48,442 nucleotides of DNA from a virus, in the IMG/VR virus record IMGVR_UViG_3300010413_000055, positions 1 through 48,442 of that record; one strand, given 5' to 3'. A model generated the notes under the pieces. The model was not told where the DNA came from, did no database searches, and saw only the letters and a program-made list of their open reading frames with translations. The position numbers were made by a program, and so were the translations under genes. Each line of letters begins with the position of its first letter. The stretch's first letter is position 1. Shown piece after piece: positions 13,753 through 46,248 of the stretch.

Positions 13753-14799
13753 CTAACAAATCACTCCGTAACCAAGAGCGCATAACCGGCATTCTTCCCT
13801 GTCCTTAATATTCTTGCGAAAGTCCCAGCTTTCCTTTGATCGCCACGCTTTCTGTATATCATCCGTATAAGCATTCCCCCAACTAAAAGGTTCGCTCATC
13901 CTCGTTTCCCCCAACATAGAGAACGGTTGCGGTTCTGAGAAAAACACACACGGCATCATCTCTCCATTAGGGTCTATGTATAACGTAGAAGCTAAACCGC
14001 ATCCAACCCTCTCTATCTTTGTGGGTCGTCTTTTAATCCATATCTTGTACTCCCTGCACTTACGCCATGCTTCTATCTGCATGGCATCTATCTCAGGAAC
14101 TCCATCGTAAGAGTACAGGCACTCATCCATGTGCTCGGGTCTGTAGGTATTTATACCGGAGTATTTCAAAGACCATATCCCCAGCTCATGGCACATATCC
14201 GGCATTTTGGTTATCTCATGTTTGTTTTTTTTCTGCATCACCTGGATAGTCCTCACCCTGCCACCCTTGGCTATGAACTCCTTGACGTGCTTTATTATCA
14301 AGTCGAAGTTAGAACCAACCCTTATAGCTTCATGCGTCTCCTTGGTTACTCCATCGAGTGATACACATATGTTAGAAATACCTCTCTTCAGGAGTTCATT
14401 CTGGGTCTTGTCATTCAACAGCATCCCATTGGTTATTATCGTAGGCCATATCCTCGGGTTGTAACTTCTCACCAAGTCCACCATCTTGAAGAAATCTTTA
14501 TGGAAGAACGGTTCAGCAGAACACAGATTCAATACATTACAGGTGTTCCAGAAAGGCTGAAGCCTCTCAGCTAACTTGGCGAACTGCTCAAACGGTATGA
14601 ACCACTTGTCCATCTTCGTGTTGGTTATCCGACACGTAGGACACTGTATGTTGCACCGAGTCATGGTCTCTATTACGATTGTCGTCGGGTAAGGTGCAGC
14701 ATAACACGTAGGCTCAGTAATTTCGTAAGTACACTGGTCTTCCAAGTCCACCACCTCCCCATGTATTTTACCTTGAGTTCCTTGTGCTGTCGCTTCCAT
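13753..14799 (-). CDS. Radical SAM enzyme with C-terminal SPASM/twitch-like Cys cluster
   Basis: CNIQCPTC (CxxxCxxC) near the N-terminus. C-terminal GCGLAS..MPCVFF..ECRLCALGYGVIC. The start is ambiguous: ATG 14799 overlaps the upstream gene by 127 nt, whereas ATG 14664 lies 8 nt after its stop. Confidence 0.8.
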   Translation of the reverse strand: MEATAQGTQGKIHGEVVDLEDQCTYEITEPTCYAAPYPTTIVIETMTRCNIQCPTCRITNTKMDKWFIPFEQFAKLAERLQPFWNTCNVLNLCSAEPFFHKDFFKMVDLVRSYNPRIWPTIITNGMLLNDKTQNELLKRGISNICVSLDGVTKETHEAIRVGSNFDLIIKHVKEFIAKGGRVRTIQVMQKKNKHEITKMPDMCHELGIWSLKYSGINTYRPEHMDECLYSYDGVPEIDAMQIEAWRKCREYKIWIKRRPTKIERVGCGLASTLYIDPNGEMMPCVFFSEPQPFSMLGETRMSEPFSWGNAYTDDIQKAWRSKESWDFRKNIKDREECRLCALGYGVIC

Positions 14800-16295
14800 T
14801 CGGGTGGGTCTACCAGACTGGTAGAATGTTCGTAGATAGGATGCTTATAAACATTGACCGGCAACATACCCACTGTGGCTTTGTCTATCGCCCTGAGTGC
14901 GAACTCCTGGTCTGGTATCCTTGTCGTGGCATCCAGTAAACCAACCTTGGCGAATATGCTTCTCCTGTAAAGAAACCCATTACCGCATGAGCCGTAGTAG
15001 AAAACATCCTCGAACTTCTTACCGTAATCTTTGGGTAGACGTACCTGCCATTCACCCTTACCGCTTATCTTGTGTCCAAGGCATACCAGCAAGTCTATCT
15101 GAGGATTTGCTTCCATGTAACTAACAGCCTGGTCTATTCCATTAGGTATAACGATATCATCATCACAACACTGGAATACATACTTGGCTGTTGACATCAT
15201 CACACCCTTATTGAATGCGTGTGCGGGGCCTGCATCAGGTTCACTCACCACCTTGGTTATTATCTTACCGAAGTTATTGATGACTTCTTTAGTCTTGTCT
15301 GTCGAGCCACCATCAACTACGATAAGTTCATCGTGCTCAGTAACTACGGTCTTTAGATTCTCGAATGCGTTTTGCAGATAGTTCCACCTGTTCTTTGTCC
15401 CAAGTACGAATGATACTCTCTTGGGTAAGTAATCCTGTTCATCTGCCCTGCCGTAAAGTACGAGCTTGTCATATAAAGCCAATGCACCATCCGGTAAGTT
15501 CTTGACTACCTCCATACTCTTGAGTAAGTTCTGTAGGTATTTCCATGCGAAGTCAGGTAGCCATATCTCTTTAGTAAACTCATGGTCGCATCGGTACCTC
15601 ACGCTTCCGTCAGCGAACTGGTCTATCGCTACCCCGTGAGCTTCTGCCTCCTCTACGGTTACAGCCATCATAGCCCTCGTAAGGTGCGCATTGTAGCAAT
15701 CGGTACGGGAACCTTTCTTTGGTAGCAACTGCATCAGCATCATCCTCTCTGAAAGATAGAGAAGAACAGAACCCTCGGTGTGCGGCAATCCATAGAGTTG
15801 ACCGTCCTTGGTTCTACAGAGATGCGATCCTTCCGATATAATCACCTCTGCTCCGTATTCCTTGGCTATACCTATCCAGTATTCTATACCGGCTTTCTCA
15901 AGGAAGTAGGGATACCCAAATGGAGCATCTGCACCATACAGCCTTATCTTCTTAACCCCTAAATGAAGAGCTAAAGCAATCTGGTAACATACGGTGTTGG
16001 TAAAGTACGTTTCCTCCTTACCGAAGGAAGTGAAGTGTTTTTGAACCTCCTCTAAAGGATATTTGATATCTGCGTAGTCGTGAAAGGATACGATAGGGAT
16101 TCCCGGTAGCCTCTCACGATATTTAGGGAGACGTGGCTCGAAGTCGAATATGTAGTCCATTCTCTTTCCTGCACATTCCGGATACGAGCCAACGTCCTTA
16201 ACTCCCCATACTTCCGCATCATGCGGACAATCCCGTTTACTTTCCCCCTTGGCGAGAATTATTATCTCGTCAGGTGCCTTGTTAAAGATTTCCAT
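14673..16295 (-). CDS. Two-domain glycosyltransferase: N-terminal sialyltransferase (GT42)/Maf-DUF115-like domain fused to a C-terminal GT2 (GT-A) domain
   Basis: The C-terminal half has RVSFVLGTKNRWNYL, LIVVDGGSTDKT and CCDDD. The N-terminal half has IIILAKGESK and TNTVCYQIALALHLGVKKIRLYGADA, which resembles the CstII-type SGVYMCAVAIALGYKEIYLSGIDF segment (recalled from memory). Confidence 0.65.
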   Translation of the reverse strand: MEIFNKAPDEIIILAKGESKRDCPHDAEVWGVKDVGSYPECAGKRMDYIFDFEPRLPKYRERLPGIPIVSFHDYADIKYPLEEVQKHFTSFGKEETYFTNTVCYQIALALHLGVKKIRLYGADAPFGYPYFLEKAGIEYWIGIAKEYGAEVIISEGSHLCRTKDGQLYGLPHTEGSVLLYLSERMMLMQLLPKKGSRTDCYNAHLTRAMMAVTVEEAEAHGVAIDQFADGSVRYRCDHEFTKEIWLPDFAWKYLQNLLKSMEVVKNLPDGALALYDKLVLYGRADEQDYLPKRVSFVLGTKNRWNYLQNAFENLKTVVTEHDELIVVDGGSTDKTKEVINNFGKIITKVVSEPDAGPAHAFNKGVMMSTAKYVFQCCDDDIVIPNGIDQAVSYMEANPQIDLLVCLGHKISGKGEWQVRLPKDYGKKFEDVFYYGSCGNGFLYRRSIFAKVGLLDATTRIPDQEFALRAIDKATVGMLPVNVYKHPIYEHSTSLVDPPEWKRQHKELKVKYMGRWWTWKTSVLTKLLSLRVMLHLTRRQS

Positions 16296-16314
16296 TTATC
16301 CCCCTTAATTTTGT

Positions 16315-17025
16315 TTATGTAGCCCACGTACCGGCTAAACTCTGGATGTACCATGCGTTAGAACCAGCACCAAGGATATCTACATAGTCGCCTGCTCTGT
16401 GGGTGGCATCAGTATTGGTGAGCGTAAGATTGCTTGTGGTAGTGCTCAGGCCGCATCCAACAATGGTATCACCTGAATTACAGTGTATGATTACCTCACT
16501 GGTAGAGTCGGCACCAACAGATACGATTTTGTACCTGTACCCGAGAACACTTGCAGGTAGCGTCAGTGAAATATTGTCACCACTCACCTGAACCACCTTG
16601 CCGCTTTCCGATACGGTCAGTGTCGTGTTAGCTGTGATACCTACTGCCGAAGCGTTACCGTGGATAAGCTGGTCGTAATACGATATCTTGCCAGCTACAC
16701 CCAATGCAGATGCACCAGAGATATTACCAGCTACATTGAGAATACCACCAGCAGACACTCCACCCGTAAGTTGTGACGTACCGGATACGGTGAGTGTTCC
16801 TGTGACGGCAGTATTACCATTGACCGTGGTATTACCACCAAGTGTAGATGTACCGGATACCGTCATGTTACCAGCGACAGTCCACGTACCTGAAATACTT
16901 GAGTTTCCGTAGAACGTAGTACCCGTTGCATCAATCTCTAATCGTGGAGTTCCATTGTAGAGTGCTTGCAGGTCATTACTGACAGTATCGTTGTACCAGC
17001 CTCGATGTCTTGAGCTTTTTGCCAT
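16315..17025 (-). CDS. Ser/Thr/Gly/Asn-rich repeat protein, 236 aa (fibre- or head-decoration-like)
   Basis: Tandem degenerate G-T/S-x-T-V-x-G-N repeats; 10 of 17 Asn lie in N-x-S/T; sits between the capsid genes and the glycosyltransferase. Confidence 0.65.
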   Translation of the reverse strand: MAKSSRHRGWYNDTVSNDLQALYNGTPRLEIDATGTTFYGNSSISGTWTVAGNMTVSGTSTLGGNTTVNGNTAVTGTLTVSGTSQLTGGVSAGGILNVAGNISGASALGVAGKISYYDQLIHGNASAVGITANTTLTVSESGKVVQVSGDNISLTLPASVLGYRYKIVSVGADSTSEVIIHCNSGDTIVGCGLSTTTSNLTLTNTDATHRAGDYVDILGAGSNAWYIQSLAGTWAT

Positions 17026-17053
17026 TTGTCCTCCTTGCTGAAAGTCAGCACTT

Positions 17054-17086
17054 GAAAAGAGTGGGTGAGTTTAAGCCCCCACCCAC
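17054..17086 (-). terminator. Rho-independent terminator after the 241-aa gene
   Basis: Minus-strand GTGGGTG-12 nt loop-CACCCAC followed by TCTTTTC. Confidence 0.6.
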
Positions 17087-17096
17087 GGCTTAGTGT

Positions 17097-17822
17097 TTAA
17101 GTAGCTTGCCAGTCTCTTCCGCCCTTAGCCCATCCGTAGTCCACTTCAAAAACCTGCGGGATTCCGTTAAGACGATTCTCTACGCCCATACAGGCATAGA
17201 ACAGGTCTGATGTTACAGTGAGGGTAGAATTAGCATCCATGACAACCCTACCATTAAGGTAAGATGTAACACGTCCGCTAGGGCCTATCTCAACCCTGAT
17301 AACATCCCACTCGTCGGATACTGGGGCTTCATTACCATCGACGGCAGTCACGTTTACCGCACCACCATCTCCGCATACAGCCATCCAGTCAGCAGTAGCC
17401 ATGTCAACATCATAGGCGAGTCCTACCATACCACCCGAACCATTATAGGTAACGGTAGAAGTAGAAATCTCGGCAGGCATCACAGGAGTAGCCGCATTAA
17501 GAGTTTCAGAGAAACCCACAAAGCAGGCTGCGCCAGTGATAGTTGTCATCTTGAGACGTGTTTCCATGTAGGCCCCACCATCAGCGGGTTTGAACGGGCC
17601 GGTGAAGAAGAAGAAGTTGTCTGCGTCAGCGGTGTCGTTAGTAATTGCCTTGATACCACCGGGTTCATCTACGGTATTGTCGATAGAACCCTCGTTTACC
17701 GAGCAGTAGTTCCAACCACCTGTACCTATAGGTGAAGCAACAGTGCCAACAGAAGAGGTGTCAAAGGCAAAGAAATCATCAAATATTTCGATAGTTCCCT
17801 GTGAACCTTGTTCGTAACCCAT
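17097..17822 (-). CDS. Head-associated protein, 241 aa (possible decoration/jelly-roll-type)
   Basis: Immediately downstream of the capsid gene with GGAGGAATAATG RBS; function inferred only from position. Confidence 0.5.
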   Translation of the reverse strand: MGYEQGSQGTIEIFDDFFAFDTSSVGTVASPIGTGGWNYCSVNEGSIDNTVDEPGGIKAITNDTADADNFFFFTGPFKPADGGAYMETRLKMTTITGAACFVGFSETLNAATPVMPAEISTSTVTYNGSGGMVGLAYDVDMATADWMAVCGDGGAVNVTAVDGNEAPVSDEWDVIRVEIGPSGRVTSYLNGRVVMDANSTLTVTSDLFYACMGVENRLNGIPQVFEVDYGWAKGGRDWQAT

Positions 17823-17831
17823 TATTCCTCC

Positions 17832-18704
17832 TTAACTTGTCGGCGCGGTGGCATCACTGAAGATTTCGATACCCCATGTATCAAGTCGTTCGCCATACGC
17901 ATATTCGTCGTAGTGGTAGACGGACGTACCACCGCCGCCTACGTTTTCTTTTCTTACAGCAACCGCCCTCGGTGCTCGACCCTGTACCAGCACAAGAGCC
18001 TCCTGTGCGAATACAGCACCTTTAGCCTGGTTGCCTGAAATTGATATGTTGCCATCCTCATAAAGTTGTACGTTGTTTATCATACCTCGATAACCTTCTT
18101 TAAGGACTCTGGCAGATAAACCTTCAGGTATATTATAAGTTCCAATACCAGCTCTCAGGTCATCCTCGATGTCCTTTAACTGGTAGCCGTGCAGTACACC
18201 TCTATAAGGTGGCTTACCGGGTTCAGTAGCATTACCGGTTATGATACCAACGGCTGCATTAATGTGACCGATCGAGAGAGTTGAAGAACCTGAACCTGGT
18301 ATTGTGTTCGAGAATGAGTCGAACATCGTGATACCGTCTTCGTCTTTCTTTCTCTGGATTGCGTGTTGTGCAAGTGAACCGGTCTGGGCAAATGCAACCT
18401 TGGCGATTCTAGCAGCAACCCTGTCAGTGATAAATGTTTCTATACCTATCACAGTAGGAGTTACTGAGAAGAGTGAGTCCGAAAGCAGTTGCGGGTTATC
18501 CAGTACGGTAGTTTCTGTGATTTCCTGAGCGTTCAGTTTATCAAACTTGACCTCATTCCATGTCAGACCCAGACCCTTACCGAGTGTCTGGTTCTCTACC
18601 AACTGGGGTACAACACCTTCCTGCTCCCTGACCTGCCTTGCGTTCATTATCCAAGTAGGAAGTGAATCAGCAAGGGCATCAGTTGTGGTATTCCCAGCCG
18701 CCAT
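17832..18704 (-). CDS. Major capsid protein (HK97-fold size class)
   Basis: 290 aa directly after a scaffold-like acidic coiled-coil gene; AAGGAG RBS; bracketed by terminators, consistent with high expression. Confidence 0.65.
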   Translation of the reverse strand: MAAGNTTTDALADSLPTWIMNARQVREQEGVVPQLVENQTLGKGLGLTWNEVKFDKLNAQEITETTVLDNPQLLSDSLFSVTPTVIGIETFITDRVAARIAKVAFAQTGSLAQHAIQRKKDEDGITMFDSFSNTIPGSGSSTLSIGHINAAVGIITGNATEPGKPPYRGVLHGYQLKDIEDDLRAGIGTYNIPEGLSARVLKEGYRGMINNVQLYEDGNISISGNQAKGAVFAQEALVLVQGRAPRAVAVRKENVGGGGTSVYHYDEYAYGERLDTWGIEIFSDATAPTS

Positions 18705-18714
18705 TTATTTCTCC

Positions 18715-19470
18715 TTATAGCATTCCTTGAATTTTATTAAGCCTTTCAATATTGGCTTCCGTGAGTGGTAAGCTGCCATCAGTCATAGCTTCTACAAAAG
18801 CTGCATCCGATGTATTGCCACCTCCACCCTGTTCCGTGTTCACAGACTCAAGACCTGCGTCTATCCTGACTTTCCTGACACTATTTTCAATTTCGGCTTT
18901 AATCTCTTCTCTCAGTTTACTTACTTCTTTGGAGCTATCTTCTTTAACTATCTTGGTTATCGAAGCCGAGAACTTGTTTAAACCAGCTACAAGGTCATCA
19001 CCTTGATCCCCCCAGTTTATCCTCGGGTCATCTCTGGTTAGTCCAGCATTTGCTATCATGCTGTCCTGAAGTTCCTTTACGCTCTCAAAGTATTTCTCCT
19101 GAGCTTGCCTCTGAGATTCCTGCTGTGCAGCAGTCTGTGTCAGTTGGTCTTTCGCTCTGTAGGTGTTTAGTTCTATCCTCTCCCTGTCTTCTTCAGGAAG
19201 AGTGTTCAAACTTGTCTTGTAAGCAGCCGCCTCCGCTTCTGCTCTCTCCCTCGCTAATCTTTCGTTACGATTTCTTTCCTGTTGAGCCTGGAGTTCTCTA
19301 CGCCCAGTCTCCTTTGCCTGCTCTACGGCTGACTTCAGCATCTCCTGAATCTTTGCCTCCTGGTCTGCCGTAAATGCTGGTTGCGCCACCTCTTCTTTCG
19401 GTGTTTCAACCGGAACAGTCTCTTGGGTTTGTTCCTGAGTCTGCTCTTCGTTAGCCTGTTCTAACGTCAT
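18715..19470 (-). CDS. Scaffolding protein (acidic, Glu/Gln/Ala-rich coiled coil)
   Basis: Start set at ATG 19470 (MTLEQANEE) behind a strong AAAAGGAGGGGG RBS. The longer track ORF would read through the terminator. Confidence 0.6.
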   Translation of the reverse strand: MTLEQANEEQTQEQTQETVPVETPKEEVAQPAFTADQEAKIQEMLKSAVEQAKETGRRELQAQQERNRNERLARERAEAEAAAYKTSLNTLPEEDRERIELNTYRAKDQLTQTAAQQESQRQAQEKYFESVKELQDSMIANAGLTRDDPRINWGDQGDDLVAGLNKFSASITKIVKEDSSKEVSKLREEIKAEIENSVRKVRIDAGLESVNTEQGGGGNTSDAAFVEAMTDGSLPLTEANIERLNKIQGML

Positions 19471-19491
19471 CGTCCCCCTCCTTTTACAAAA

Positions 19492-19533
19492 TAAAAAAAA
19501 ACCGCATCCGGTCACTATGGACTCAAATGCGGT
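19492..19533 (-). terminator. Rho-independent terminator-like hairpin just upstream of the scaffold RBS
   Basis: Minus-strand ACCGCAT-19 nt-ATGCGGT followed by T9. Confidence 0.55.
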
Positions 19534-19576
19534 CACTGATACGGACACTGTATTCGATTGTAAAGGTTCTAAATAT

Positions 19577-19723
19577 TTAAGATATCACAACTTCCTTGGG
19601 TATGTCAATATATACTACGTTCTGAGCCTTACATCTTGGGCAGGTGAACTCCACCACGCATTTGCCTAACTGCACAGAAACCAACCACTTATTACATTTC
19701 TTGCATCTTACTTCTACAGACAT
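19577..19723 (-). CDS. Mu Com-like zinc-ribbon protein, 48 aa
   Basis: MSVEVRCKKCNKWLV...VEFTCPRCKAQN parallels Mu Com IRCKNCNKLL...IEIRCPRCK (from memory); start overlaps the NeuA-like stop by 10 nt. Confidence 0.55.
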   Translation of the reverse strand: MSVEVRCKKCNKWLVSVQLGKCVVEFTCPRCKAQNVVYIDIPKEVVIS

Positions 19724-20373
19724 TTATCAGCTATCCATTCGGCTAACACCCAGTCCAACTCATCGTTGATATCGAATCCCTCGTATCCATAGGTAAAGAA
19801 CGGTACTATCTTTAACCCACAGATAGAATTGGATTCTAATACTTGCGTCTTAGCCATCTCCAAACTTGCGTTCTGGACATACACCTCCGGTAGTGTCTGA
19901 TAAGGTTGAGAATGAAGCTTGTTTCCAGTATAGGGTATGATATATTCCCCAACCACAGTCCACATCTTTTCAGGATGTTGCTTGCACTTCTCCACAGCCC
20001 TGATAGAATCGCACTCTGTAGAATTAAATAAGTCATATCCACGTTGTATCGTCTCTGCTGTTCTAAACGGAGAAGTTGGTCTGAGTATAGAAAACGAATC
20101 TTCATTTATCTTCTCCATGATGTGTTTTACCCACTCCACATCTTTAGAGGTATCCTTGGCTATCTCAGGCGGTCTCATCACTACTTCAGCATCATATCTA
20201 TCTGCTATATCCTTGTACTCAATGGAGTCTGTAGATACTATAACCCTTGAGAATACACCACTCTTTATAGCTTCAGTGATTGTATAGGACATCAATGGCT
20301 TACCTTTCAATCGCCTGATGTTCTTATCCTTTATCCTCTGAGAACCTGAACGAGCAGGTATAAGTCCTACCAT
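19714..20373 (-). CDS. Acylneuraminate (nonulosonic acid) cytidylyltransferase family protein (NeuA/PseF/LegF/KdsB-like)
   Basis: N-terminal GLIPARSGSQRIKDKNIRRLKGKPL signature; 219 aa. Confidence 0.8.
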   Translation of the reverse strand: MVGLIPARSGSQRIKDKNIRRLKGKPLMSYTITEAIKSGVFSRVIVSTDSIEYKDIADRYDAEVVMRPPEIAKDTSKDVEWVKHIMEKINEDSFSILRPTSPFRTAETIQRGYDLFNSTECDSIRAVEKCKQHPEKMWTVVGEYIIPYTGNKLHSQPYQTLPEVYVQNASLEMAKTQVLESNSICGLKIVPFFTYGYEGFDINDELDWVLAEWIADKCL

Positions 20374-20588
20374 TCTCCCAAGTCTACTCCTATTTCTTCA
20401 AGAGCGTTTATTATCTCCATAGCCTTTTTACATCTCCGTGTTCCCTGGAATTCGTAGTATCCACATCGTACACCATACGGCCCGCACCATCTCCCTGGTT
20501 CTGTGTACTTAACCTTATGGGTACACAATTTAAGAGCTAACTTATTGTAGATATCGCTCTTAGAAACACTCATCTTCTTTGATATCAC
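20367..20588 (-). CDS. Hypothetical Cys-containing protein of up to 73 aa between the NeuB-like and NeuA-like genes
   Basis: ORF only; start uncertain (ATG 20573 reduces the overlap with the upstream gene). Confidence 0.4.
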   Translation of the reverse strand: MISKKMSVSKSDIYNKLALKLCTHKVKYTEPGRWCGPYGVRCGYYEFQGTRRCKKAMEIINALEEIGVDLGEW

Positions 20589-21549: not shown

Positions 21550-21557
21550 GCTACCAC

Positions 21558-25276: not shown

Positions 25277-25815
25277 GTTCCAGTGCCATGATGAGGAAAT
25301 GTTCTCTCGTAAGTATACCTCCACACCCTATCCGTAGGTGTGTAACATCCGATACCATTGTCTTCTACTACGAATGTTATTTGTAAATCTTCGCCCTTAG
25401 CATACTTGTTACACTCATGGAAAATACCCATTTCAGAAGCCATGTCTCCAACGAATACCCATACATGACTCCTGCCGTTCTTTAATCTGTTCCCAAGTGC
25501 TACCCCCAATGCAATAGGCAGGACACCTCCAACGATTGAAGATGTTATGAATCTGTGCTCTGGTGAATTGATGTGCATACTCTTGTTCTTTAGTATCTCG
25601 TTCTTCAACCATTCTCTATCTACTCCTTTTAGAAGCGCATGGTAGTGATTCCTGTGGGTTGAGAATACCCAGTCTTCTTCCTTGATATGAGAGAATAAAT
25701 ATATAAGCTCATCCTCGTTTCCACCCGAAAGATGTACGGGAGAATGAATCTTACCAGCCTCATATAACTCGACTATCTCTGTCTCGAACATTATCAATGA
25801 TTCTGCATTCAACAA
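25261..25815 (-). CDS. TPP-binding E1-alpha-like subunit, shortened (184 aa)
   Basis: GDMASEMGIFHECNKYAKGEDLQITFVVEDNGIG aligns by eye with the GDGA..G...E..N.A....P.IF..ENN.YG TPP-binding motif. Confidence 0.65.
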   Translation of the reverse strand: MLNAESLIMFETEIVELYEAGKIHSPVHLSGGNEDELIYLFSHIKEEDWVFSTHRNHYHALLKGVDREWLKNEILKNKSMHINSPEHRFITSSIVGGVLPIALGVALGNRLKNGRSHVWVFVGDMASEMGIFHECNKYAKGEDLQITFVVEDNGIGCYTPTDRVWRYTYERTFPHHGTGTWVNF

Positions 25816-25945
25816 AATATATCTTCTTCCTTTGCTGCCTTGTTACCCTACCGCACTTCTTGCATCTGTGTACATAGTAAAAGAATTCACCGTCATCTTC
25901 TTCCCATGATTCATCTTCACCACCACATTTAGTTGCGTGATTCAT
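25760..25945 (-). CDS. Possible 61-aa zinc-ribbon ORF overlapping both neighbours
   Basis: HATKCGG...CKKCG; overlaps the kinase end by 17 nt and the E1-alpha-like start by 56 nt, so doubtful. Confidence 0.3.
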   Translation of the reverse strand: MNHATKCGGEDESWEEDDGEFFYYVHRCKKCGRVTRQQRKKIYFVECRIIDNVRDRDSRVI

Positions 25946-26738
25946 ATATTATTTTACTACCTTCCTTATCAAACCTGAAGTCTATCACACTTAGTCTTAG
26001 AGCATCAGATACCTTTGTCCTATCATCTGGATTTACCACGAATACCATGAACCCACCGCCTCCACCACCTAACAGCTTACCACCTAAAGCACCAGCCTCC
26101 AAGGCTATTCTGTAATACTCATCAACCTTATTAGTAGATACATCATCAGACAAGTTTCTTTTTAATCTCCATGCTGTATGAAGAGCATTACCGAAATCTA
26201 CGGGATCGTCGTAATCCTGAAGAGCTAAATCCTTGAGTTCATGTAACGTCTTCAGATTCCTGTCCATCCTGTCTAACTGATGCCGTATTATCACACCACC
26301 CTGACGATAGATACCGGTATCAACCAACATGAGATATGGTTCAAGCCAGTCATAGTCAAGTTCCTCTTCCACCACACCACTACCATAGAACCTTAATCTC
26401 TTGAATCCCCCCACAGCACAGATATACTGGTCTTGATAACCACAGGCACCACCACGTTCTTTCAACTCTAACCCTGTGGCTAACGCAGCAGTTTCTTTAC
26501 CACCCATTCTATGAGAAGCAGTGAATAACCCAACGGCAAAAGCACTAGAAGTACCCATACCACTGCCAGAAGGTAACTCATCATGTGACCATACCTCCCC
26601 GCTACGGCTTATACCTACATAGCAGTATTTATCTATGGCGGTAGTTATGACGCAACCACCATACCTTGAGAAATAGTCTTCGTAGTCTGACCCTCCACCA
26701 AGTAAAGATATCCGGTACGGTGTCCTTGTAACCAGCAT
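25929..26738 (-). CDS. GHMP sugar kinase (HddA-like heptose-phosphate kinase type)
   Basis: MLVTRTPYRISLLGGGSD N-terminus; PSGSGMGTSSA (motif II); LLGGGGGGFM (motif III). Confidence 0.8.
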   Translation of the reverse strand: MLVTRTPYRISLLGGGSDYEDYFSRYGGCVITTAIDKYCYVGISRSGEVWSHDELPSGSGMGTSSAFAVGLFTASHRMGGKETAALATGLELKERGGACGYQDQYICAVGGFKRLRFYGSGVVEEELDYDWLEPYLMLVDTGIYRQGGVIIRHQLDRMDRNLKTLHELKDLALQDYDDPVDFGNALHTAWRLKRNLSDDVSTNKVDEYYRIALEAGALGGKLLGGGGGGFMVFVVNPDDRTKVSDALRLSVIDFRFDKEGSKIIYESRN

Positions 26739-27072
26739 GACTTTTACTTAACCTCACTACATCTTCTTCTGAATGCGGTGTCGATACCTCTATTATAACC
26801 GAATCCGCAAATCCGTAAATCGAATGCTTCTCCCCAGGCATGATAGTCTTCGGTGATGCCATCTGATGCAAATCATATTTCTTATCCTCAACTATAAGTA
26901 ATACTTCACCTTCTATGCACCAGAATGTTTCCTTCTTTTCCTTATGATAGTGATAACTTCCCTGCGCACCTTCGGCTATCTCCAATAACTTGCAACAGTA
27001 ACTTTCATTGTTTACAAGCCATATCTCCTGCCCCCATACCTTAGGGACTATCTTAATCTTTTCTTTTATCAC
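26629..27072 (-). CDS. Cupin-domain protein (sugar isomerase/epimerase-like)
   Basis: KVWGQEIWL...GSYHYHKEKKETFWCIEGEVLL...PGEKHSI. The last ~35 aa overlap the kinase gene in another frame and look non-native. Confidence 0.6.
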   Translation of the reverse strand: MIKEKIKIVPKVWGQEIWLVNNESYCCKLLEIAEGAQGSYHYHKEKKETFWCIEGEVLLIVEDKKYDLHQMASPKTIMPGEKHSIYGFADSVIIEVSTPHSEEDVVRLSKSHAGYKDTVPDIFTWWRVRLRRLFLKVWWLRHNYRHR

Positions 27073-27589
27073 CTGCGTACTCTTTTACAAATGCGTCTCG
27101 TTCACTCAACAGGTAATTATCTACTGGAATGTATAGGTTGAAATCCTCCATGTTGAAAGTTCTCTGGTCAGGATTGCTATTGTTGAAGTATTGGTCTTGT
27201 AAGTAATGGAAGATGGCGTAATCTGACAGGACAAGAAACCCACTCCCGTAGCGTGGATGTTTGTATATCTGCCATCGGTTTCTGTCGTTAAGCGGAAAAC
27301 TCTCCCACTTTCCAAATTCCTCATCCTCCTCATCACAGTTTACTACGTAGTATATCATCGAACCATAGAGACATTGATTCAGTTTCCAGCAGTGAGGTGA
27401 GTAATGTATACCCCTGAATACGTTTTTAATCGACGTTGAGATGTCATGCTCTACAGGATGGAAGTCAGGGAAGTGAGCGTTGAACTCTCTTTCGTTGTAC
27501 GTCATCACGTACTCACCACGCCAGTCGTGATTTATCTCAGGCTTGATTATATAGACATCTTTTAAGGTTGTGCTTTGTACCATTCCCAT
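27053..27589 (-). CDS. RmlC-like NDP-4-keto-6-deoxy-sugar 3,5-epimerase
   Basis: DWRGEYV, NVFRGIHYS, KLNQCLYGSMIYYVV, YGSGFLVLSDYAIFHY. Confidence 0.75.
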   Translation of the reverse strand: MGMVQSTTLKDVYIIKPEINHDWRGEYVMTYNEREFNAHFPDFHPVEHDISTSIKNVFRGIHYSPHCWKLNQCLYGSMIYYVVNCDEEDEEFGKWESFPLNDRNRWQIYKHPRYGSGFLVLSDYAIFHYLQDQYFNNSNPDQRTFNMEDFNLYIPVDNYLLSERDAFVKEYAGDKRKD

Positions 27590-28359
27590 GTTTTCTTTAT
27601 CCCCTCTTCTAGTGGTGTATAATCGAATGAAACTGGTTTATCAGATAAGCGTCCAGTTGATAATTCGCGTTTATTTAATTCAATAGTAAAATCTGATAAT
27701 TTTTTCATAATATTGGCTACGTCTAAAGTTGACATCAAGCTAGCTCCAATATTAAAATTACCTTTCCAACTACGCATCAAATCTACGCATATATTAGCCA
27801 CATCTTCACTATAAGTAAAATCTCTAATATCTCCACCAGTTCCTATATTTATCTTTTTATCACCACGTTTAACTTTAGCCATCAGAGCAGGTATGAACAT
27901 ACCGTCATCGGGATCAAAGTTATCATACTCTCCGTAGACTGAGTTTGGTCTTATCACTACCCAGTTATCAAATCCATATTGTATCTTGTATGCTTCAAGT
28001 TGTTTCTCTCCAGCCTCCTTGGCAAAACCTGGATATTTGTCATGTAATACCGCGGTGGAACTTACATAGAGAATCTTCTTAACACCATTCAATCGTGCTG
28101 CCTCAAGTATGTTTGTATTCATCTGTAGCATCGGTACGAAGAAATCAGCGGGTCGCTCTCTTGTCATCTTACCTGAACCCTTGACTCCTGCTACGTGATA
28201 GAGTTGGTCTACTCCTTTAGTGAATTCCTTACACAGATTGAAGTCTGTTAAGTCCTGCCCTGTTTTCTTATCGGCTTTGATTAACTCGCACGTTCCTTCA
28301 AGTAAGTCACATACCTTGTGACCTATCATACCTTCCGAACCAGTTACTAAAACTTTCAT
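27562..28359 (-). CDS. NAD(P)-dependent epimerase/reductase (extended SDR; 4-keto reductase candidate)
   Basis: MKVLVTGSEGMIGHK Rossmann motif; 265 aa; adjacent to the epimerase and dehydratase. Confidence 0.7.
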   Translation of the reverse strand: MKVLVTGSEGMIGHKVCDLLEGTCELIKADKKTGQDLTDFNLCKEFTKGVDQLYHVAGVKGSGKMTRERPADFFVPMLQMNTNILEAARLNGVKKILYVSSTAVLHDKYPGFAKEAGEKQLEAYKIQYGFDNWVVIRPNSVYGEYDNFDPDDGMFIPALMAKVKRGDKKINIGTGGDIRDFTYSEDVANICVDLMRSWKGNFNIGASLMSTLDVANIMKKLSDFTIELNKRELSTGRLSDKPVSFDYTPLEEGIKKTWEWYKAQP

Positions 28360-28577
28360 AAAACAGTTTCCTCATAAATTGATGCTAAAAATATTGATGG
28401 GATAAAGAATATTGATAATGGAATTATAATAAAAAGAAGGTAATAGGTATTGTTATTACACATAGTTACTATCAGATAGGCTGTTGTATATATATATATT
28501 AGTAACATAGCGAGATACCATATGTTGATTTTATTTCGTTTCTTTATCCCCATAAATGTATCTGGAAATACTTTCAT
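28356..28577 (-). CDS. 73-aa two-helix membrane mini-protein, very AT-rich gene
   Basis: IWYLAMLLIYIYTTAYLIV and YYLLFIIIPLSIFFIPSIFLASI; ATGA coupling on both sides. Confidence 0.5.
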   Translation of the reverse strand: MKVFPDTFMGIKKRNKINIWYLAMLLIYIYTTAYLIVTMCNNNTYYLLFIIIPLSIFFIPSIFLASIYEETVL

Positions 28578-29515
28578 ACTCTCCCCCTCCAGTAATTGAG
28601 TGTATCCTCAAGTGTCTGCGAGAATGGTATCTCTGGTTTCCACCCAGTCTGCTTTGTGAACTTGTCTATACATGGTATCTGCATCGTTACATCAGTTGGT
28701 CGAAGCCTATCAGTATTCATTTCACAGTTAAATACGTGCGTTGAAAGTGAACATAGTTTATCAAGCATCTCGCATATAGTCATTGACTCAACACCACCTA
28801 TGTTATAAACTTCACCAGCAGGACAATCCCATAACTTGTGGTACGCCCTAACAGCATCTTTAACGTCGAGCCATGTTCTCACTGAATCGAGATTGCCATG
28901 CTCTAAGACTTCACGTTTACCTTTTTCTATCTCCGCTATCTGCTTTGCAAAGTTAGACATGACGAATACTTCACCCCTGCGCGGGCCGGTATGAGTGAAC
29001 ATCCTTGTGACAATAGTTCTCATCCCATAGTTCTCGTAGTAGAGCCTGCCAAGCATATCCTCCCCAACCTTACTCACAGCATAAGGACTTACGGGATTCA
29101 ACGGACACTCTTCTGTTATCGGTATATCCTCGGGACGTACTTTTCCGTATACCTCACTCGATGAGCAGATGTGTATGATTGGGTCGAGTTCCAGCCATCT
29201 TACAGACTCCAGTAGATTAGATGTTCCTATGATATTATTATCGTAAGTTACATTAGGTGCTGTTGTGGAGAATGGTACGTAAGACTGTGCAGCTAGATGG
29301 TGTATCACATCAGGTTTATGTTTCTTTAGAATATAGTCAAGTGAACTCCTGTCAAGCAAATCACCATACTCAAGATTCAGGTCTTTCTCTATGTGTGCGA
29401 TGTTTTCTCTATTAGACCTGACACGCACTATACCTACGATATCTGCTTTATCCAACAGATACTCGGCTAACCATGAGCCTACGAACCCCGTGATACCAGT
29501 GATAAGAACCTTCAC
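28574..29515 (-). CDS. NDP-sugar 4,6-dehydratase (GDP-mannose/GDP-heptose 4,6-dehydratase-like SDR)
   Basis: TGITGFVGSWL, SSSEVYG, YAVSKVGED (YxxxK), FTHTGPRRGEVFV, GNLDSVRTWLDVKD. Confidence 0.8.
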   Translation of the reverse strand: MKVLITGITGFVGSWLAEYLLDKADIVGIVRVRSNRENIAHIEKDLNLEYGDLLDRSSLDYILKKHKPDVIHHLAAQSYVPFSTTAPNVTYDNNIIGTSNLLESVRWLELDPIIHICSSSEVYGKVRPEDIPITEECPLNPVSPYAVSKVGEDMLGRLYYENYGMRTIVTRMFTHTGPRRGEVFVMSNFAKQIAEIEKGKREVLEHGNLDSVRTWLDVKDAVRAYHKLWDCPAGEVYNIGGVESMTICEMLDKLCSLSTHVFNCEMNTDRLRPTDVTMQIPCIDKFTKQTGWKPEIPFSQTLEDTLNYWRGRV

Positions 29516-30738
29516 ATTACCCCCTTTATCACATTGATTACATTCTCTACTGCATCCCCGTTAGGTCTGATATACCTCTTTACCCACGCCCGCCTTGCTT
29601 CTATATTGTCATCCTGCCCACGCACCAGCTTGACTATCTCATTCAGACATTCCTCCGGTTTATGGACGAGTATCATACCATCCATCATACTCCTGTAGTG
29701 CATGGTATCTAACTGAGTCCTTTTACTGCCAAGCATCACTGGTGAAATAACAGCCTTGTCATTTATCATGGCATCTATCATAGCAGAGTTATTCAAACCA
29801 ATCACGCCAACTGAGTGGTATAAGGTATCATAGAATAACTGAATAGACTCTTTACTGCCAGGAGTTTTCCCGAACGACTTGTAGACATTGGGCGCATCAT
29901 AGATAGTGTATATCTTCCTGTTAGCCTGATGAGGTCTTAAAAGTATGTTTATATCGAGACTCTTCGCTATCCCATTCAAGATATAGGTTTCGTCCTTTCT
30001 GATATTGGACGACGATCCCAGATAAACAATGTATGGCTTATCCTCCATACCCATGCCTTCAAGGAACTCTTTTCTGTCTGTTGGTTTATTATGTCCCCAT
30101 ATCTCGAACCTTGCAGCACCAGTGAGTTCTATCCTGTCTTTAGGTACGCCGTGAATATTCATCAATATATCAATCTGCTCTTCATTCCATGCGCATACTT
30201 TATCAGGCATGATATGAAACGTACCCTTCGTTGTTAGGTTATCCCAGCTTAACACTATCGCTACCGTGGGACACTTCGCAGCTTTTAAGTATTCCTGCTC
30301 CTCTGAATATCTCAACGTGTTTCCACTAACTACGAGTACGTCAGGATTCTTTTCTTTCAACCAGTCTTTAACCTTTTTGTCCTGAGGTACTATCTTCTCA
30401 AATAGTTTTATGGAAGTCCTGAGCAAATCACTCTTGAATATCTTGTCACCTATCTCCATGTCGATAAGTTTCCTCTGGAATGGTGTGAGGTATTTATACC
30501 ACCTGTTAGTGTAATAGTCAGACTGCTCTTTCATCCTAAGATAGTTCGAGTAGTTATATAGCTCCCTTGCTTTGAAAATAGAGTCTCGCCACTTATCGTT
30601 ACGCCTTGGGAAATACTCGATACCGTCTATCTCATTGTCTCGACTCCAGCCGATATCGTAGTAGACATCTCCCGGGAACCTGTCTATGAGTGGTTGCATT
30701 ATAAATCTATGGTTTGTCGTTCGTAGCAGATAAATCAC
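29512..30738 (-). CDS. Putative GT-B-like glycosyl/phosphoglycosyl transferase, family unresolved
   Basis: Two-lobe layout (DVLVVSGNT... / PYIVYLGSSSNI...ILLRPHQ) within the sugar block; weak recognition only. Confidence 0.4.
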   Translation of the reverse strand: MIYLLRTTNHRFIMQPLIDRFPGDVYYDIGWSRDNEIDGIEYFPRRNDKWRDSIFKARELYNYSNYLRMKEQSDYYTNRWYKYLTPFQRKLIDMEIGDKIFKSDLLRTSIKLFEKIVPQDKKVKDWLKEKNPDVLVVSGNTLRYSEEQEYLKAAKCPTVAIVLSWDNLTTKGTFHIMPDKVCAWNEEQIDILMNIHGVPKDRIELTGAARFEIWGHNKPTDRKEFLEGMGMEDKPYIVYLGSSSNIRKDETYILNGIAKSLDINILLRPHQANRKIYTIYDAPNVYKSFGKTPGSKESIQLFYDTLYHSVGVIGLNNSAMIDAMINDKAVISPVMLGSKRTQLDTMHYRSMMDGMILVHKPEECLNEIVKLVRGQDDNIEARRAWVKRYIRPNGDAVENVINVIKGVM

Positions 30739-30985
30739 TTTCTTTATTCCTATAGATGTATGGGTCTTTTAGAAAATACGTTGATTCATGCAGATTATAC
30801 TTATCCCTGAGTTCTGCCCAGAATACAGCCAGGTCAGTCTTGACAGACGGGAATCCTTCGTGAATCTCCCTGTCCATCAACTGATAGTATTTCTCCCTTT
30901 CATCTCTGGAGAATTTCTTTACTTTCTTACCATCCACTATTTGATACCCTCGATATTCAACGCTATAAATGTACCATTCTTCCAC
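30707..30985 (-). CDS. Hypothetical 92-aa protein in the sugar block
   Basis: ORF only; overlaps both neighbours (49 and 32 nt). Confidence 0.4.
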   Translation of the reverse strand: MEEWYIYSVEYRGYQIVDGKKVKKFSRDEREKYYQLMDREIHEGFPSVKTDLAVFWAELRDKYNLHESTYFLKDPYIYRNKESDLSATNDKP

Positions 30986-31479
30986 TCATCATCAGGCAGT
31001 TCGTTTCCATCTGAATCGTGATATGGCACATAGTTGATACTCCAGTCTCTGATAGGGTGGTCTGTCCATCTTTTGATATCTGTGAATCCTATCTCTTCCA
31101 GTTCTCTCTTGAGAGTATCGTAGTCCCAGCACCAGTAGTGGAAGTTCCAGTCAGAATCCTGACCGGCATATAAGGCAGGATACAGGCTCTTCAAATCCTT
31201 AGTTGACACATAATACTCACATACACTTGCGAAATCCGGTACGGATAATTTTAACTTTCCCCCTTTATCCAAAATATCATACCACCTCTGAAGAGCCTGC
31301 TTATACCTGTACCTGCCTAAATGCTCAAGGATGTTACACGCATATATTTCTTCCACATCACCTATAATCGAACCAAGAACAACCACATCATCAAAGATAT
31401 CAGCTTTGGAATCTATATCAGAATCTATATTAAGATATCCCTGTATGTAGTTTTGTCCGCAACCTAGATGCAGTTTCAT
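30937..31479 (-). CDS. Class I SAM-dependent methyltransferase
   Basis: MKLHLGCGQNYIQGYLNID (motif I) and YACNILEHL. Confidence 0.7.
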   Translation of the reverse strand: MKLHLGCGQNYIQGYLNIDSDIDSKADIFDDVVVLGSIIGDVEEIYACNILEHLGRYRYKQALQRWYDILDKGGKLKLSVPDFASVCEYYVSTKDLKSLYPALYAGQDSDWNFHYWCWDYDTLKRELEEIGFTDIKRWTDHPIRDWSINYVPYHDSDGNELPDDEWKNGTFIALNIEGIK

Positions 31480-32540
31480 AGAAACTCCTCAACTGCTATC
31501 AGCCATTCGTTGTACTCGATAAAGAATTTTCCTATAAGTCCGCAATCCATACTGTCAGGAAGACACTTCTCTACAAGTTCCCTCATAGCTCCATAGTAAG
31601 TTTTCTCTGTTAGTTCTGTGTTCCTTACCAATTCTACAAAGTCATCGGTGAGCTCATCTACCGGAAGTTCCAACTTAAGGTCATCCCACAGATTATGATT
31701 GTTGCGTATCTGGGTAACTAACGGAGCACCGAATGTTATCAGGTCTCCGAAATGTTCCGCCAGTTTATTATAGAGATATGAAGTCCAGATATCAGAGTTG
31801 CGTGTAGCACATCGTGGTCGGTAGTAAAGCGGTATCATCTCTCTTGACAGACAGGTATTCTGGAAGTTGAACGGAGACCATGTTTTAAATAACCCGAAGT
31901 GACCAAGCTGACCGTACTTATTCCTCAAAGCATTGGTAGGTTGAGCAAGCCTCTGTATAGCGTCTATATCAGAATCACCGAGAACAAGACCCTGATTGAT
32001 GATAGTTCTCTTGGTACCCATACTAGCAACAAAATCACCACTACCATTCACTCTCTTACTCCATGGATATCCCCTTGGATAGAACTCAATATCGTTTTCC
32101 TCCTGAAGCATAGAGTGTACATTGAACCATCCCAAATCATTCCTGAAAAACGTTCTGTATTCAAAAGAACCAGCCCATTCATGCGAACCTATGAAGTCGT
32201 CCTCTGTAGGGAAGTTATCATCGTCAAGTGCGATAACTCTGTCTGCTCCATTCTGGTAAGCGAACATACATCCGAGTATCACTCTATCCGGTGTATTGAA
32301 CGGGAAGAATTCCGACAGTTTATCCTGGAATATCTTTGGTTGAATCTCTGTATCGAAGTAAGATATTGTTACATCATACTTCTCGTAAAGGTACTTGATT
32401 AACTTTCCGATTTCCTTGTCCGGTGATTTCTTATCACCGATTACATACACCTGTGCCTCTCGCTTATGTTTGACCATGTTTTTACACAAGTCTTCAAGCA
32501 CGTAAGGCACGTGTATAGTCGTGATGGTTACTACGTTCAT
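31476..32540 (-). CDS. GT75 / reversibly-glycosylated-polypeptide (UDP-arabinopyranose mutase)-like protein
   Basis: VIALDDDNFP, FYPRGYPW, NQGLVLGDSDIDA and RNSDIW parallel DDDCF, RGYPF, HGLWLNIPDYDA and RYDDMW of plant RGPs (recalled from memory). Confidence 0.5.
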   Translation of the reverse strand: MNVVTITTIHVPYVLEDLCKNMVKHKREAQVYVIGDKKSPDKEIGKLIKYLYEKYDVTISYFDTEIQPKIFQDKLSEFFPFNTPDRVILGCMFAYQNGADRVIALDDDNFPTEDDFIGSHEWAGSFEYRTFFRNDLGWFNVHSMLQEENDIEFYPRGYPWSKRVNGSGDFVASMGTKRTIINQGLVLGDSDIDAIQRLAQPTNALRNKYGQLGHFGLFKTWSPFNFQNTCLSREMIPLYYRPRCATRNSDIWTSYLYNKLAEHFGDLITFGAPLVTQIRNNHNLWDDLKLELPVDELTDDFVELVRNTELTEKTYYGAMRELVEKCLPDSMDCGLIGKFFIEYNEWLIAVEEFL

Positions 32541-46241: not shown

Positions 46242-46248
46242 GGTTATT

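Follow-up and report, generated by a model that had tools for sequence, protein, structure and literature searches.

Two activated-sugar routes and a fusion glycosyltransferase among the head genes of a 48-kb uncultured phage suggest glycosylation of a head-associated virion protein

To our knowledge, glycosylation of the phage particle has been demonstrated for no more than a few actinobacteriophages, and the virus-encoded sugar pathways that we know of come mainly from giant viruses and large cyanophages. Giant viruses such as the chloroviruses and mimiviruses have their own glycosylation machinery, with whole sugar-nucleotide pathways, and the mycobacteriophages with sugar-bearing particles reportedly encode only transferases and draw on the sugar nucleotides of the host. 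In bacteria, the Maf flagellin islands of Campylobacter, Helicobacter and Magnetospirillum contain a NeuB-type synthase, a cytidine monophosphate (CMP)-sugar synthetase and a soluble transferase of the DUF115 fold, and place nonulosonic acids on Ser/Thr residues of a self-assembling structural protein before assembly. Where PMC12619734 cites Freeman 2023, it states that phage-encoded glycosyltransferases (GTs) glycosylate capsid and tail-tube proteins of mycobacteriophages, with the glycans detected at the C-termini of the capsid and tail-tube subunits. Here we analyse the virus record IMGVR_UViG_3300010413_000055 (48,442 nucleotides, the whole of which we call the window), which carries genes for two activated sugars, a CMP-nonulosonic acid and a nucleoside diphosphate (NDP)-6-deoxyhexose, in three blocks among its head and tail genes. 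Comparison with other phages suggests a sugar coat on a head-associated protein. The best-supported reading, to which we give about even chances, is phage-encoded protein glycosylation, expressed late and acting on a head-associated virion protein.

Bases 1–144 of the window are identical to bases 48299–48442, and a permuted 48,328-nt contig in a public run is the same genome, so that the window represents a complete, circularly assembled genome of 48,298 bp. The sample is SRR14699974, and 0.1-µm fractions of Hainich groundwater are the source of related contigs. Its minus strand has an unbroken run of ~46 open reading frames (ORFs) from 39625 down to 4101, in the order small genes, terminase, a conserved protein of portal size, head genes and tail genes including a tailspike. 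This late operon makes up 73% of the genome (64% if the cargo is left out). The sugar genes lie in block 1 (24737–32540), block 2 (19714–21549) and block 3 (13753–16295), which sum to 12.2 kb, or 25% of the genome. An earlier note on this DNA had proposed three co-oriented sugar blocks inside the head–tail operon, and this was borne out, all genes from 4101 to 39625 being on the minus strand; its tally of 17 sugar genes among ~55 late genes becomes 18 block ORFs among the ~46 of the late strand. Enzymes were assigned by Pfam and NCBIfam profile searches, with PDB, PHROG and AlphaFold/Foldseek for selected proteins. The sugar-enzyme assignments of the note were supported almost gene for gene, and 14 of the 18 ORFs have enzyme-family support (sugar or radical S-adenosylmethionine, rSAM).

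Block 2 holds the CMP-nonulosonic acid genes. The ORF at 20560–21549 encodes a nonulosonic-acid synthase of the NeuB family (Pfam NeuB PF03102, 1e-77, and SAF PF08666, 7e-7), which scored 300 bits against the NCBIfam NeuB model and 247 bits against PseI; both scores are under the equivalog cut-offs, and the sugar product is not assignable from them. NeuB homologues were found in three of 50,697 deposited phage records. The second gene (19714–20373) encodes a CMP-nonulosonic-acid synthetase (CTP_transf_3 PF02348, 1e-26) whose top NCBIfam model was PseF, at 120 bits against a cut-off of 206. A 59% identical copy is found at the same place in locus L094. An ORF of 73 amino acids (aa) lies between the two genes. 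Among the block genes there was no NDP-sugar nucleotidyltransferase and no NeuC, Pse or Leg precursor enzyme for either sugar route, and both pathways would therefore depend on host intermediates.

The NDP-6-deoxyhexose genes are in block 1. They encode an NDP-hexose 4,6-dehydratase (28574–29515; GDP_Man_Dehyd, 2e-78), an RmlC-like 3,5-epimerase (27053–27589; dTDP_sugar_isom, 4e-31), a short-chain dehydrogenase/reductase (SDR) that is probably a 4-ketoreductase resembling GDP-fucose synthase (27562–28359; Pfam Epimerase, 2e-32; NCBIfam Fcl, 2e-28, under its cut-off) and a GT75 homologue. The gmd, dTDP-glucose dehydratase and LegB models score alike on the dehydratase, so that its nucleotide is not resolvable. 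Between the dehydratase and reductase genes lies a 73-aa ORF with two predicted membrane segments and 25.7% GC (28356–28577), the sole membrane-type ORF in the three blocks.

The earlier note had described the product of 31476–32540 (354 aa) as a GT75-like transferase. The homology holds (MtdL, PDB 7xpr/7yua, E = 2e-37), but the role points to a sugar mutase instead, of the NDP-pyranose/furanose type. In MtdL the catalytic residues are a DDD motif, a nucleophilic Arg, catalytic Asp residues and phosphate ligands (PMC9937993). Aligned with MtdL, the window protein keeps a DDD-N motif, Arg156, Asp191, Gln227, Arg247, Asp250, Arg279 and His282. In MtdL numbering, the DXD motif, Arg159, Asp195, Gln229, Arg257, Asp260, Arg289 and His292 are kept in it and in five phage homologues. 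The Mn ligand His287 is replaced by Gln in all six of these phage sequences, and Ser228 by Phe or Tyr, again in all six; the Mn-coordinating His287 of the GT75 family is also lost in AtRGP5, which is inactive. Taken together, the dehydratase, epimerase, reductase and mutase read as a putative route from a host NDP-hexose through a 6-deoxy-L-hexose to its furanose form.

Block 1 also encodes a probable S-adenosylmethionine methyltransferase (30937–31479) with an N-terminal LHLGCG motif; it has no Pfam match of its own, and the gene of locus L093 that is 54% identical to it gives weak Methyltransf_11/12/23 matches. The 408-aa GT-B-like protein at 29512–30738 is a possible glycosyltransferase (NCBIfam BFO_1060, 2e-8, far under the cut-off). 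Its family has 2813 homologues, and 36 of them showed weak Glyco_transf_4, Epimerase_2 and Glyphos_transf matches, with fusions to GT2, methyltransferase or HAD domains.

The remaining genes of block 1 encode a GHMP sugar kinase closest to HddA (25929–26738; GHMP_kinases_N and _C; NCBIfam HddA, 4e-34, under its cut-off), a small cupin (26629–27072; Cupin_2, 4e-7) and what the earlier note had called a split thiamine pyrophosphate (TPP) enzyme. The cupin ORF overlaps the start of the kinase gene by 110 bases (26629–26738), and its homology to the cupin of locus L086 stops at about residue 119; it may be over-long or contain a frameshift. The split enzyme does consist of two ORFs, which belong to a large family of half-size E1 alpha/beta pairs in glycan clusters: a TPP-binding E1-alpha-like subunit (25261–25815; E1_dh, 5e-20) and a pyrimidine-binding E1-beta-like subunit (24737–25324; Transket_pyr, 3e-5, 24 bits against a 27-bit cut-off). 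At 184 and 195 aa neither ORF is a full-length E1 subunit, canonical subunits being about twice this size, and matches cover only positions 8–173 of the 300-position alpha profile. We refer to the pair as mini-E1.

The mini-E1 alpha subunit has 3816 homologues, and the 120 listed are all of 176–240 aa. The family occurs in phage late operons, in cellular glycan clusters and in a sugar cluster of cyanophage S-SM2, and the beta-like subunit is 53–64% identical to partner ORFs in L086, L089, L090 and L091. Cellular copies of the pair belong to surface-glycan clusters that encode a Wzx-type flippase, PMT_2, GT4 and nucleotidyltransferases and also carry SDRs, NUDIX, cupin and many rSAM enzymes, including rSAM-SPASM. 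One such cellular locus, L090, has an E1 pair 62% and 53% identical to that of the window, a cupin (35%) and, adjoining the pair, an SDR 52% identical to the dehydratase. In the cyanomyophages S-SM2 and P-TIM68 the mini-E1 homologue is annotated as one transketolase-type protein. That of S-SM2 (L121; 149421–150629 of NC_015279.1), a 402-aa 'transketolase central region-containing protein' that matches mini-E1 alpha, appears to be an alpha–beta fusion, and its gene sits in a heptose/NDP-sugar/capsule-type cluster, not among structural genes. The E1-like pairs AviB1/AviB2 and Pau11/Pau12 are proposed to put a C-4 acetyl branch on deoxy-sugars from pyruvate (PMC4753412). By analogy, we infer that mini-E1 could catalyse a C-branching step on a 4-keto-6-deoxy intermediate.

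Block 3 contains the transferase (14673–16295, 540 aa), which the earlier note had recognised as a dual-domain GT. The C-terminal GT2 domain stands (Pfam, 2e-18, residues 295–451), and the N-terminal half (residues ~1–200), joined to it by a helical linker, is modelled as a DUF115-type fold resembling sialyltransferases and Maf. When the full-length protein was analysed with AlphaFold/Foldseek, only the GT2 half was reported, with GT-A fold matches. The N-terminal domain gave no match to Pfam DUF115/MAF or any other family even at E up to 10, and against the PDB its profile matched only Cst-II, at E 0.6–2.3, which is not significant; the matching region has the motif YF..T..YM.A.AI..G...I.L.G.D and lies around the nucleotide-sugar site. 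An AlphaFold model of residues 1–286 (confidence score pLDDT 76) retrieved Cst-I, Cst-II, the P. multocida sialyltransferase, archaeal MptE, thiamin pyrophosphokinases and the Maf flagellin glycosyltransferase in Foldseek. The probability was 0.97–1.0 for Cst-I/II, the P. multocida enzyme and MptE and 0.82 for Maf, yet E was 4e-3 to 6e-2 and the template-modelling (TM) score 0.3–0.46. Among viral models the matches were uncharacterised phage proteins (best E 8e-10) and several MptE-like/DUF115 proteins.

The N-terminal domain is linked to CMP-nonulosonic-acid genes in three phages: the window (NeuB and NeuA), L094 (NeuA-like) and L115 (NeuA, NeuB and NeuC-like). Within the HK97-type loci compared, described below, no NeuA or NeuB was seen. 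On these observations we consider it rather likely that the domain is a nonulosonic-acid transferase of the Maf/GT42 fold class, family membership not being established. Full-length homologues of the fusion are few, with eight among the matches listed from a collection of 5.8 billion proteins, none in the 50,697 deposited phage records and no match in 185,579 reference genomes scanned with a GT alignment; they lie in phage head modules. Single-sequence scans of viral contigs likewise returned no match for the fusion GT, and the viral homologues described here came from an alignment-based scan.

The second enzyme of block 3 is an rSAM/SPASM protein (13753–14799; PF04055, 1e-15, and PF13186, 2e-9) with the motif CNIQCPTC at residues 49–56. 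It is 46% identical to the gene that follows the GT in L093 and 49% identical to that in L094. The nearest NCBIfam models were a tungsten-enzyme maturase, AlbA and WgkB, all far under their cut-offs, and its substrate could be a sugar or a protein. Just 3' of the gene lies a 76-aa CxxC...CxxC ORF (13448–13678), with a homologue in no relative, which could be a zinc-ribbon protein or an rSAM substrate.

The strongest pointer to a target comes from phages in which these genes form a single cassette beside the capsid gene. In phages of HK97 type, recognised by a PF04860 portal, Mu F, an S78 protease and a PF05065 capsid, the order is capsid, a ~160-aa protein, a 146–177-aa Ser/Thr/Gly/Ala-rich protein, GT, rSAM-SPASM, GT75, methyltransferase(s), a 216-aa protein and head–tail connectors. 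Identities to the window are 41–45% for the GT, 46% for rSAM-SPASM, 48% for GT75 and 54% for one methyltransferase (30937–31479). L093, for example, has capsid, two small proteins, GT (41%), rSAM-SPASM, GT75, an FkbM methyltransferase, the methyltransferase homologue and head–tail connectors, and this gene order recurs in L103, L105, L106, L107 and L109. In L092, L093, L095/L110, L096, L103, L104, L106 and L114, two small proteins are all that separates the GT from the capsid. As genes of blocks 1 and 3, which are 15 kb apart in the window, are found as one capsid-adjacent cassette in this unrelated lineage, they are likely to act together.

The lineage of the window shows a similar association. 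L094, whose capsid protein is 79% identical to that of the window, has the order NeuA-like, scaffold, capsid, two homologues of the gene at 17097–17822, a homologue of the gene at 16315–17025, transferase and rSAM. In L111 (capsid 64%) the capsid gene is followed by homologues of 17097 and 16315 and then by the N-terminal domain of the transferase as a gene of its own. Apart from the window, L094 and L111 alone have a homologue of 16315–17025, and in both it immediately precedes the GT or the N-terminal domain of the GT; none was found in the relatives L001–L084. A third phage type, L115 (684–10779), has a NeuA-like gene, NeuB, a 2-hydroxyacid dehydrogenase, the Cst/Maf-like domain, a methyltransferase and a NeuC-like epimerase, directly preceding the small terminase, a Hint/intein-containing large terminase and the portal.

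The gene pattern thus yields candidate acceptors. The product of 16315–17025 is a fibre-like repeat protein with 26% Ser/Thr, a candidate acceptor or partner of the GT, and gave weak PHROG matches to baseplate-wedge repeat proteins. A homologue search with it returned itself alone, and the phage database gave no match. It has 10 N-x-S/T sites against 4.4 expected, and sequons are enriched in no other protein examined; we did not rely on this as an N-glycosylation signal, as the excess is confounded by GN(T/S)T repeats. The adjacent gene (17097–17822) has no family match, and homologues follow the capsid gene in 44 relatives, which makes its product a decoration candidate. In L094 (3028–4530) the homologue is in tandem duplicate. 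Between the two genes is a terminator-like hairpin on the minus strand (17061–17086; 9-bp stem, 6 GC pairs and a T-run), which is a consensus match only. The major capsid protein itself (17832–18704) was recognised by tblastn to the annotated capsid proteins of the Pelagibacter podophages HTVC111P, 112P and 026P (25% identity over 98% of the length).

To place the blocks in their lineage, we compared the window with related phages. A viral-contig scan with the capsid protein gave 80 loci (51–69% identity), to which the portal candidate added four (L001–L084), and every late-strand protein was searched against these 84 loci by tblastn. The relatives keep the order terminase, portal, 32561, 21702, scaffold, capsid, 17097, 13128, 12509, 10331 and 8028 (genes given by their first base), with nine head and tail anchor genes holding their order, and none of the 84 loci matched a gene of the three blocks. 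The homologues of 32561 and 21702 abut (L022 4683/4715, L014 5141/5153), and the gap from the 21702 homologue to the scaffold gene is ~0.3–0.5 kb in several relatives and 1.6 kb in L020/L021. The synteny check proposed in the earlier note thus confirms insertion: as the sugar genes are absent from these loci and the flanking genes adjacent or nearly so, the blocks are lineage-specific insertions at three junctions. In a Pfam census of 137 clusters of ORFs that the relatives do not share with the window, glycosyltransferases, NeuB and SDRs were all missing; its only finds of note were a single B12-radical-SAM protein, two LamG proteins, an FkbM methyltransferase and homing endonucleases. The non-shared ORFs of the L001–L084 structural regions include homing endonuclease genes of the LAGLIDADG and HNH kinds.

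Other cargo occurs elsewhere in the group. L086 (1–11100) carries GT2, HNH, B12-rSAM, LamG and two further rSAM genes upstream of the homologue of the tail gene at 6631, together with a GHMP kinase (57% identical to that of the window), an adjoining cupin (51%) and a mini-E1 pair (65% and 61%). Provided that L020 and L086 are one circular 66,101-nt contig, this module would lie between the homologues of tail genes 8028 and 6631. The 44.5-kb phage of L089, whose capsid protein is distantly related, carries a comparable kinase–cupin–E1 set immediately behind the capsid gene. Thus, sugar-type cargo recurs at several late-operon sites across this phage group.

Translational coupling, as noted earlier, holds for most junctions, which are 4-base overlaps, and includes the last gene of block 1 (24737–25324), whose stop overlaps the start of the gene for a 1012-aa protein by 4 bases; block 2 is joined more loosely, with a 152-bp gap on one side and, on the other, a 243-bp gap that contains a sigma-70-like match. 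Codon usage of the blocks is close to that of the core genes (relative synonymous codon usage r = 0.83, against 0.92 for core splits; GC at third positions 0.41 against 0.43), and the compositional signature of recent transfer is weak. Two arguments of the earlier note lose most of their force. Dispersal through the operon says little about a virion target, because the late operon takes up 73% of the genome, and the chance that three insertions placed at random all end up in it is roughly a quarter (0.64 cubed, ~0.26, with the cargo left out of the genome). Similarly, the lack of a separate promoter carries little weight, because the 36 promoter-like sites do not exceed the 40 expected from shuffled sequence and an absent consensus tells little.

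How might the system work? The host would supply an NDP-hexose and the hexose precursor of the nonulosonic acid. The deoxy-sugar would be converted to its furanose form by the mutase, and mini-E1 may, in the manner suggested for AviB1/AviB2, put a two-carbon branch on the 4-keto intermediate. The soluble two-domain transferase would then move the sugars onto Ser/Thr of a capsid-associated protein in the cytoplasm, the GT2 half using the NDP-sugar and the sialyltransferase/Maf-like half the CMP-sugar, and the GT-B-like protein may assist. The likeliest acceptor would be the fibre-like protein or the decoration candidate, modified before or during head assembly.

Several observations favour such a head-associated target. 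The cassette lies beside the capsid gene in two unrelated lineages, and in the window's own lineage the GT co-occurs with the fibre-like Ser/Thr-rich protein. The sugar enzymes are all soluble: Pfam and membrane prediction found no membrane segment in them and no flippase, polymerase or initiating transferase. The tight coupling to head genes, the codon usage near that of core genes and the precedent of mycobacteriophage virion glycosylation point the same way.

Other observations weigh against it. Every step from gene to target is deduced, and known here from genes alone. Soluble GT2 and GT-B enzymes also serve lipid-linked acceptors, and the cellular mini-E1 pair sits in surface-glycan clusters with a flippase. 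The DUF115 fold includes pyrophosphokinases, the sequence match to Cst-II (E 0.6) is not significant, and the catalytic histidine of Cst-II could not be matched to a residue of the N-terminal domain. Both pathways are without their early steps, and a position within the late operon is expected by chance. Independent lineages with the capsid-adjacent position number just two, with L115 in addition where the N-terminal domain is concerned. Two attempts to narrow down the acceptor failed. The C-terminal SDATAPTS of the capsid protein was considered as an acceptor that would mark the phages with sugar genes, but relatives that lack such genes have it too, apart from minor variants. Nor is the fibre-like protein detectably homologous to the small protein encoded just before the GT in phages of HK97 type (hhalign probability 3%). 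In L003 and L005 a 372-aa capsid ORF has a non-homologous C-terminal extension in place of SDATAPTS.

A broader proposal, which we hold tentatively and at somewhat less than an even chance, is that small environmental phages share a self-contained glycosylation machine. The Maf/sialyltransferase-like plus GT2 family would coat a capsid fibre or decoration protein with a sialic-acid-like sugar and a branched, methylated deoxy-furanose, and the cassette with rSAM, GT75 mutase and methyltransferase would move between unrelated lineages, always next to the capsid gene.

The alternative that survives best, a serious rival though at clearly lower odds than the main reading, is remodelling of the host surface, with the sugars entering the lipid-linked glycan assembly of the infected cell (lipopolysaccharide (LPS), capsule or S-layer glycan) to block superinfection or keep progeny off debris, compare the LPS-type clusters of cyanophages and the serotype-converting phages. 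Cellular counterparts of mini-E1, the dehydratase and the cupin do lie in surface-glycan clusters (Wzx-type flippase, PMT_2, GT4), the fused mini-E1 of S-SM2 is in a cluster outside the structural genes, and Cst-type sialyltransferases act on lipo-oligosaccharide according to their PDB descriptions. In addition, the window encodes a beta-helix tailspike (4933–6621; Beta_helix, 5e-12), which makes a host polysaccharide the likely receptor. However, Pfam and membrane prediction found no membrane enzyme, flippase, polymerase, O-acetyltransferase or Gtr-type protein, and the blocks contain no Pfam family of the serotype-converting type (Gtr, Oac, Wzy). With the genes in the late operon, little time would remain for rebuilding the surface of a cell, and the GT–rSAM–mutase–methyltransferase cassette after the capsid gene of unrelated phages would remain unexplained. 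Serotype conversion by a lysogen is unlikely, as there is no integrase among ORFs of at least 150 aa and a capsid-alignment scan of the 185,579 reference genomes found no prophage relative.

A division of labour is less probable still. Here block 3, the mutase and the methyltransferase would act on a virion protein, and NeuA/NeuB and the kinase, cupin and E1 genes would be separately acquired metabolic cargo, with a different role or none that is fixed, tolerated where a long operon permits insertion. The kinase–cupin–E1 set has other partners (rSAMs, LamG and a short GT2) elsewhere in L086 and is post-capsid in L089, the HK97-type cassette is without NeuA or NeuB within the loci compared, and three insertions into an operon of this size are not significant. 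Against this, L094 keeps both a NeuA-like gene and the GT/rSAM pair at the positions of the window, and in L115 the Cst/Maf-like domain adjoins NeuA/NeuB. The ameliorated codon usage and tight junctions also argue for retained function.

Block 3 could also serve protein or peptide maturation, with the rSAM-SPASM enzyme cross-linking or modifying a peptide or virion protein in sactipeptide or glycocin style and the GT glycosylating the product. The nearest rSAM models are indeed protein and peptide maturases, and the 76-aa CxxC...CxxC ORF, unique to this phage, would be a candidate substrate. Nonetheless, we think this quite improbable: in HK97-type phages the rSAM gene precedes a sugar mutase and methyltransferases, not a conserved small peptide, and the glycan clusters of cells in which the mini-E1 pair occurs also contain rSAM-SPASM genes. 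DNA hypermodification, in which sugars on modified genome bases would evade restriction, is very improbable, because although phage GTs can glycosylate DNA (Pyle 2024, in the part of PMC12619734 that cites it), Pfam found no thymidylate-synthase-type hydroxymethylase, DNA polymerase or base-modifying enzyme among ORFs of at least 150 aa, the size covered outside the late operon, and the sugar genes lie in the head module, not with the replication genes.

The other structural genes of the late operon are conserved in position. The terminase large subunit (35394–37019; Terminase_6N; phrog_2, 1e-19) is directly followed by the portal candidate (33635–35425), which is 47–63% identical and in the same position in relatives. 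A conserved head-module protein known from relatives (32561–33466) forms the upstream border of block 1, and the 1012-aa head-module protein (21702–24740) is 31–40% identical and in the same position in 21 relatives. The portal candidate and the 1012-aa protein had no Pfam, PHROG, NCBIfam, PDB or phage-database match, the former being assigned by position and conservation. The scaffold candidate (18715–19470, with the start codon of the Logan gene call) immediately precedes the capsid gene and is 34–41% identical in 18 relatives. When PHROGs were applied to ten structural or unassigned proteins, only the terminase was recognised, apart from the weak repeat matches of the fibre-like protein. 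Two small late-strand ORFs (37750–38055 and 38259–38684) have a common N-terminus, VMPYKDKE, and look like paralogues.

The opposite strand has short early-type genes (HNH, a metallophosphoesterase, a weak DnaB-like protein and YopX). Between divergent small ORFs, at 46222–46347, are three near-consensus sigma-70 promoter matches (10–11/12) facing both ways, likely an early control region, which argues for a bacterial host. That host is not nameable, as the GT-alignment and capsid-alignment scans of the reference genomes gave no match. No tRNAs were found in the window, and megablast of 24.5 kb against the deposited phage records gave no match at nucleotide level.

Virus-encoded sugar pathways and phage virion glycosylation are both already known in kind. 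What is new is a small genome with two activated-sugar routes split among its head genes, a NeuB with so few homologues in the deposited phage records, an undescribed fusion transferase and a four-gene cassette common to unrelated uncultured phages, and the comparative pattern yields concrete acceptor candidates. If the virion is the target, uncultured phages would possess a portable capsid-glycosylation cassette, which would bear on evasion of adsorption traps and grazing, on sticking to or avoiding surfaces and on particle recognition. Some of the enzymes would be new as well, namely a sialyl-type transferase that resembles Maf and acts on protein, TPP enzymes of half the usual size, and GT75 mutases whose metal site is altered.

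How does the locus compare with the systems described? With the mycobacteriophages it shares phage-encoded soluble GTs and a proposed cytoplasmic modification of virion structural proteins, in so far as PMC12619734 relates that work. In contrast to them, the window phage encodes about a dozen sugar-nucleotide enzymes, which we know only as genes, and its capsid C-terminus is not specific to sugar-carrying phages. The modelled N-terminal domain of the transferase may share the Maf fold of the flagellin islands (PDB 5mu5), but it is ~200 aa long, fused to GT2 and without a Pfam DUF115/MAF match, and the window has no PseB/C/H/G or LegB/C/H/G precursor genes. Campylobacter jejuni Cst-I and Cst-II (GT42) are among the best PDB fold matches, Cst-II being the sole PDB sequence-profile match, but the values are weak (E 0.6 for sequence and 4e-3 for fold; TM ~0.35–0.4) and the Cst enzymes act on lipo-oligosaccharide.

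The mutase resembles MtdL/Hyg20, the GT75 GDP-L-fucose/galactose pyranose–furanose mutases (PMC9937993), at E = 2e-37 and in its DDD motif, nucleophilic Arg, base Asp and phosphate-binding Arg/His, but the phage members differ by His287 to Gln and Ser228 to Phe/Tyr and by lying in a phage head module rather than an antibiotic cluster. As with AviB1/AviB2 and Pau11/Pau12 (PMC4753412), the genes for a two-subunit TPP-type E1 homologue adjoin those for an epimerase, a ketoreductase and an NDP-hexose 4,6-dehydratase; unlike AviB1/AviB2, the subunits are of only ~180–195 aa, and the mini family also occurs with heptose genes in S-SM2. The T4-like cyanophages S-SM2 and P-TIM68 likewise have virus-encoded sugar-nucleotide pathways, in S-SM2 with a mini-E1 too. 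However, the clusters of cyanophages and giant viruses belong to genomes of 190 kb to >1 Mb and lie outside the structural operon, whereas here the genome is 48 kb and the genes are found among those for the head.

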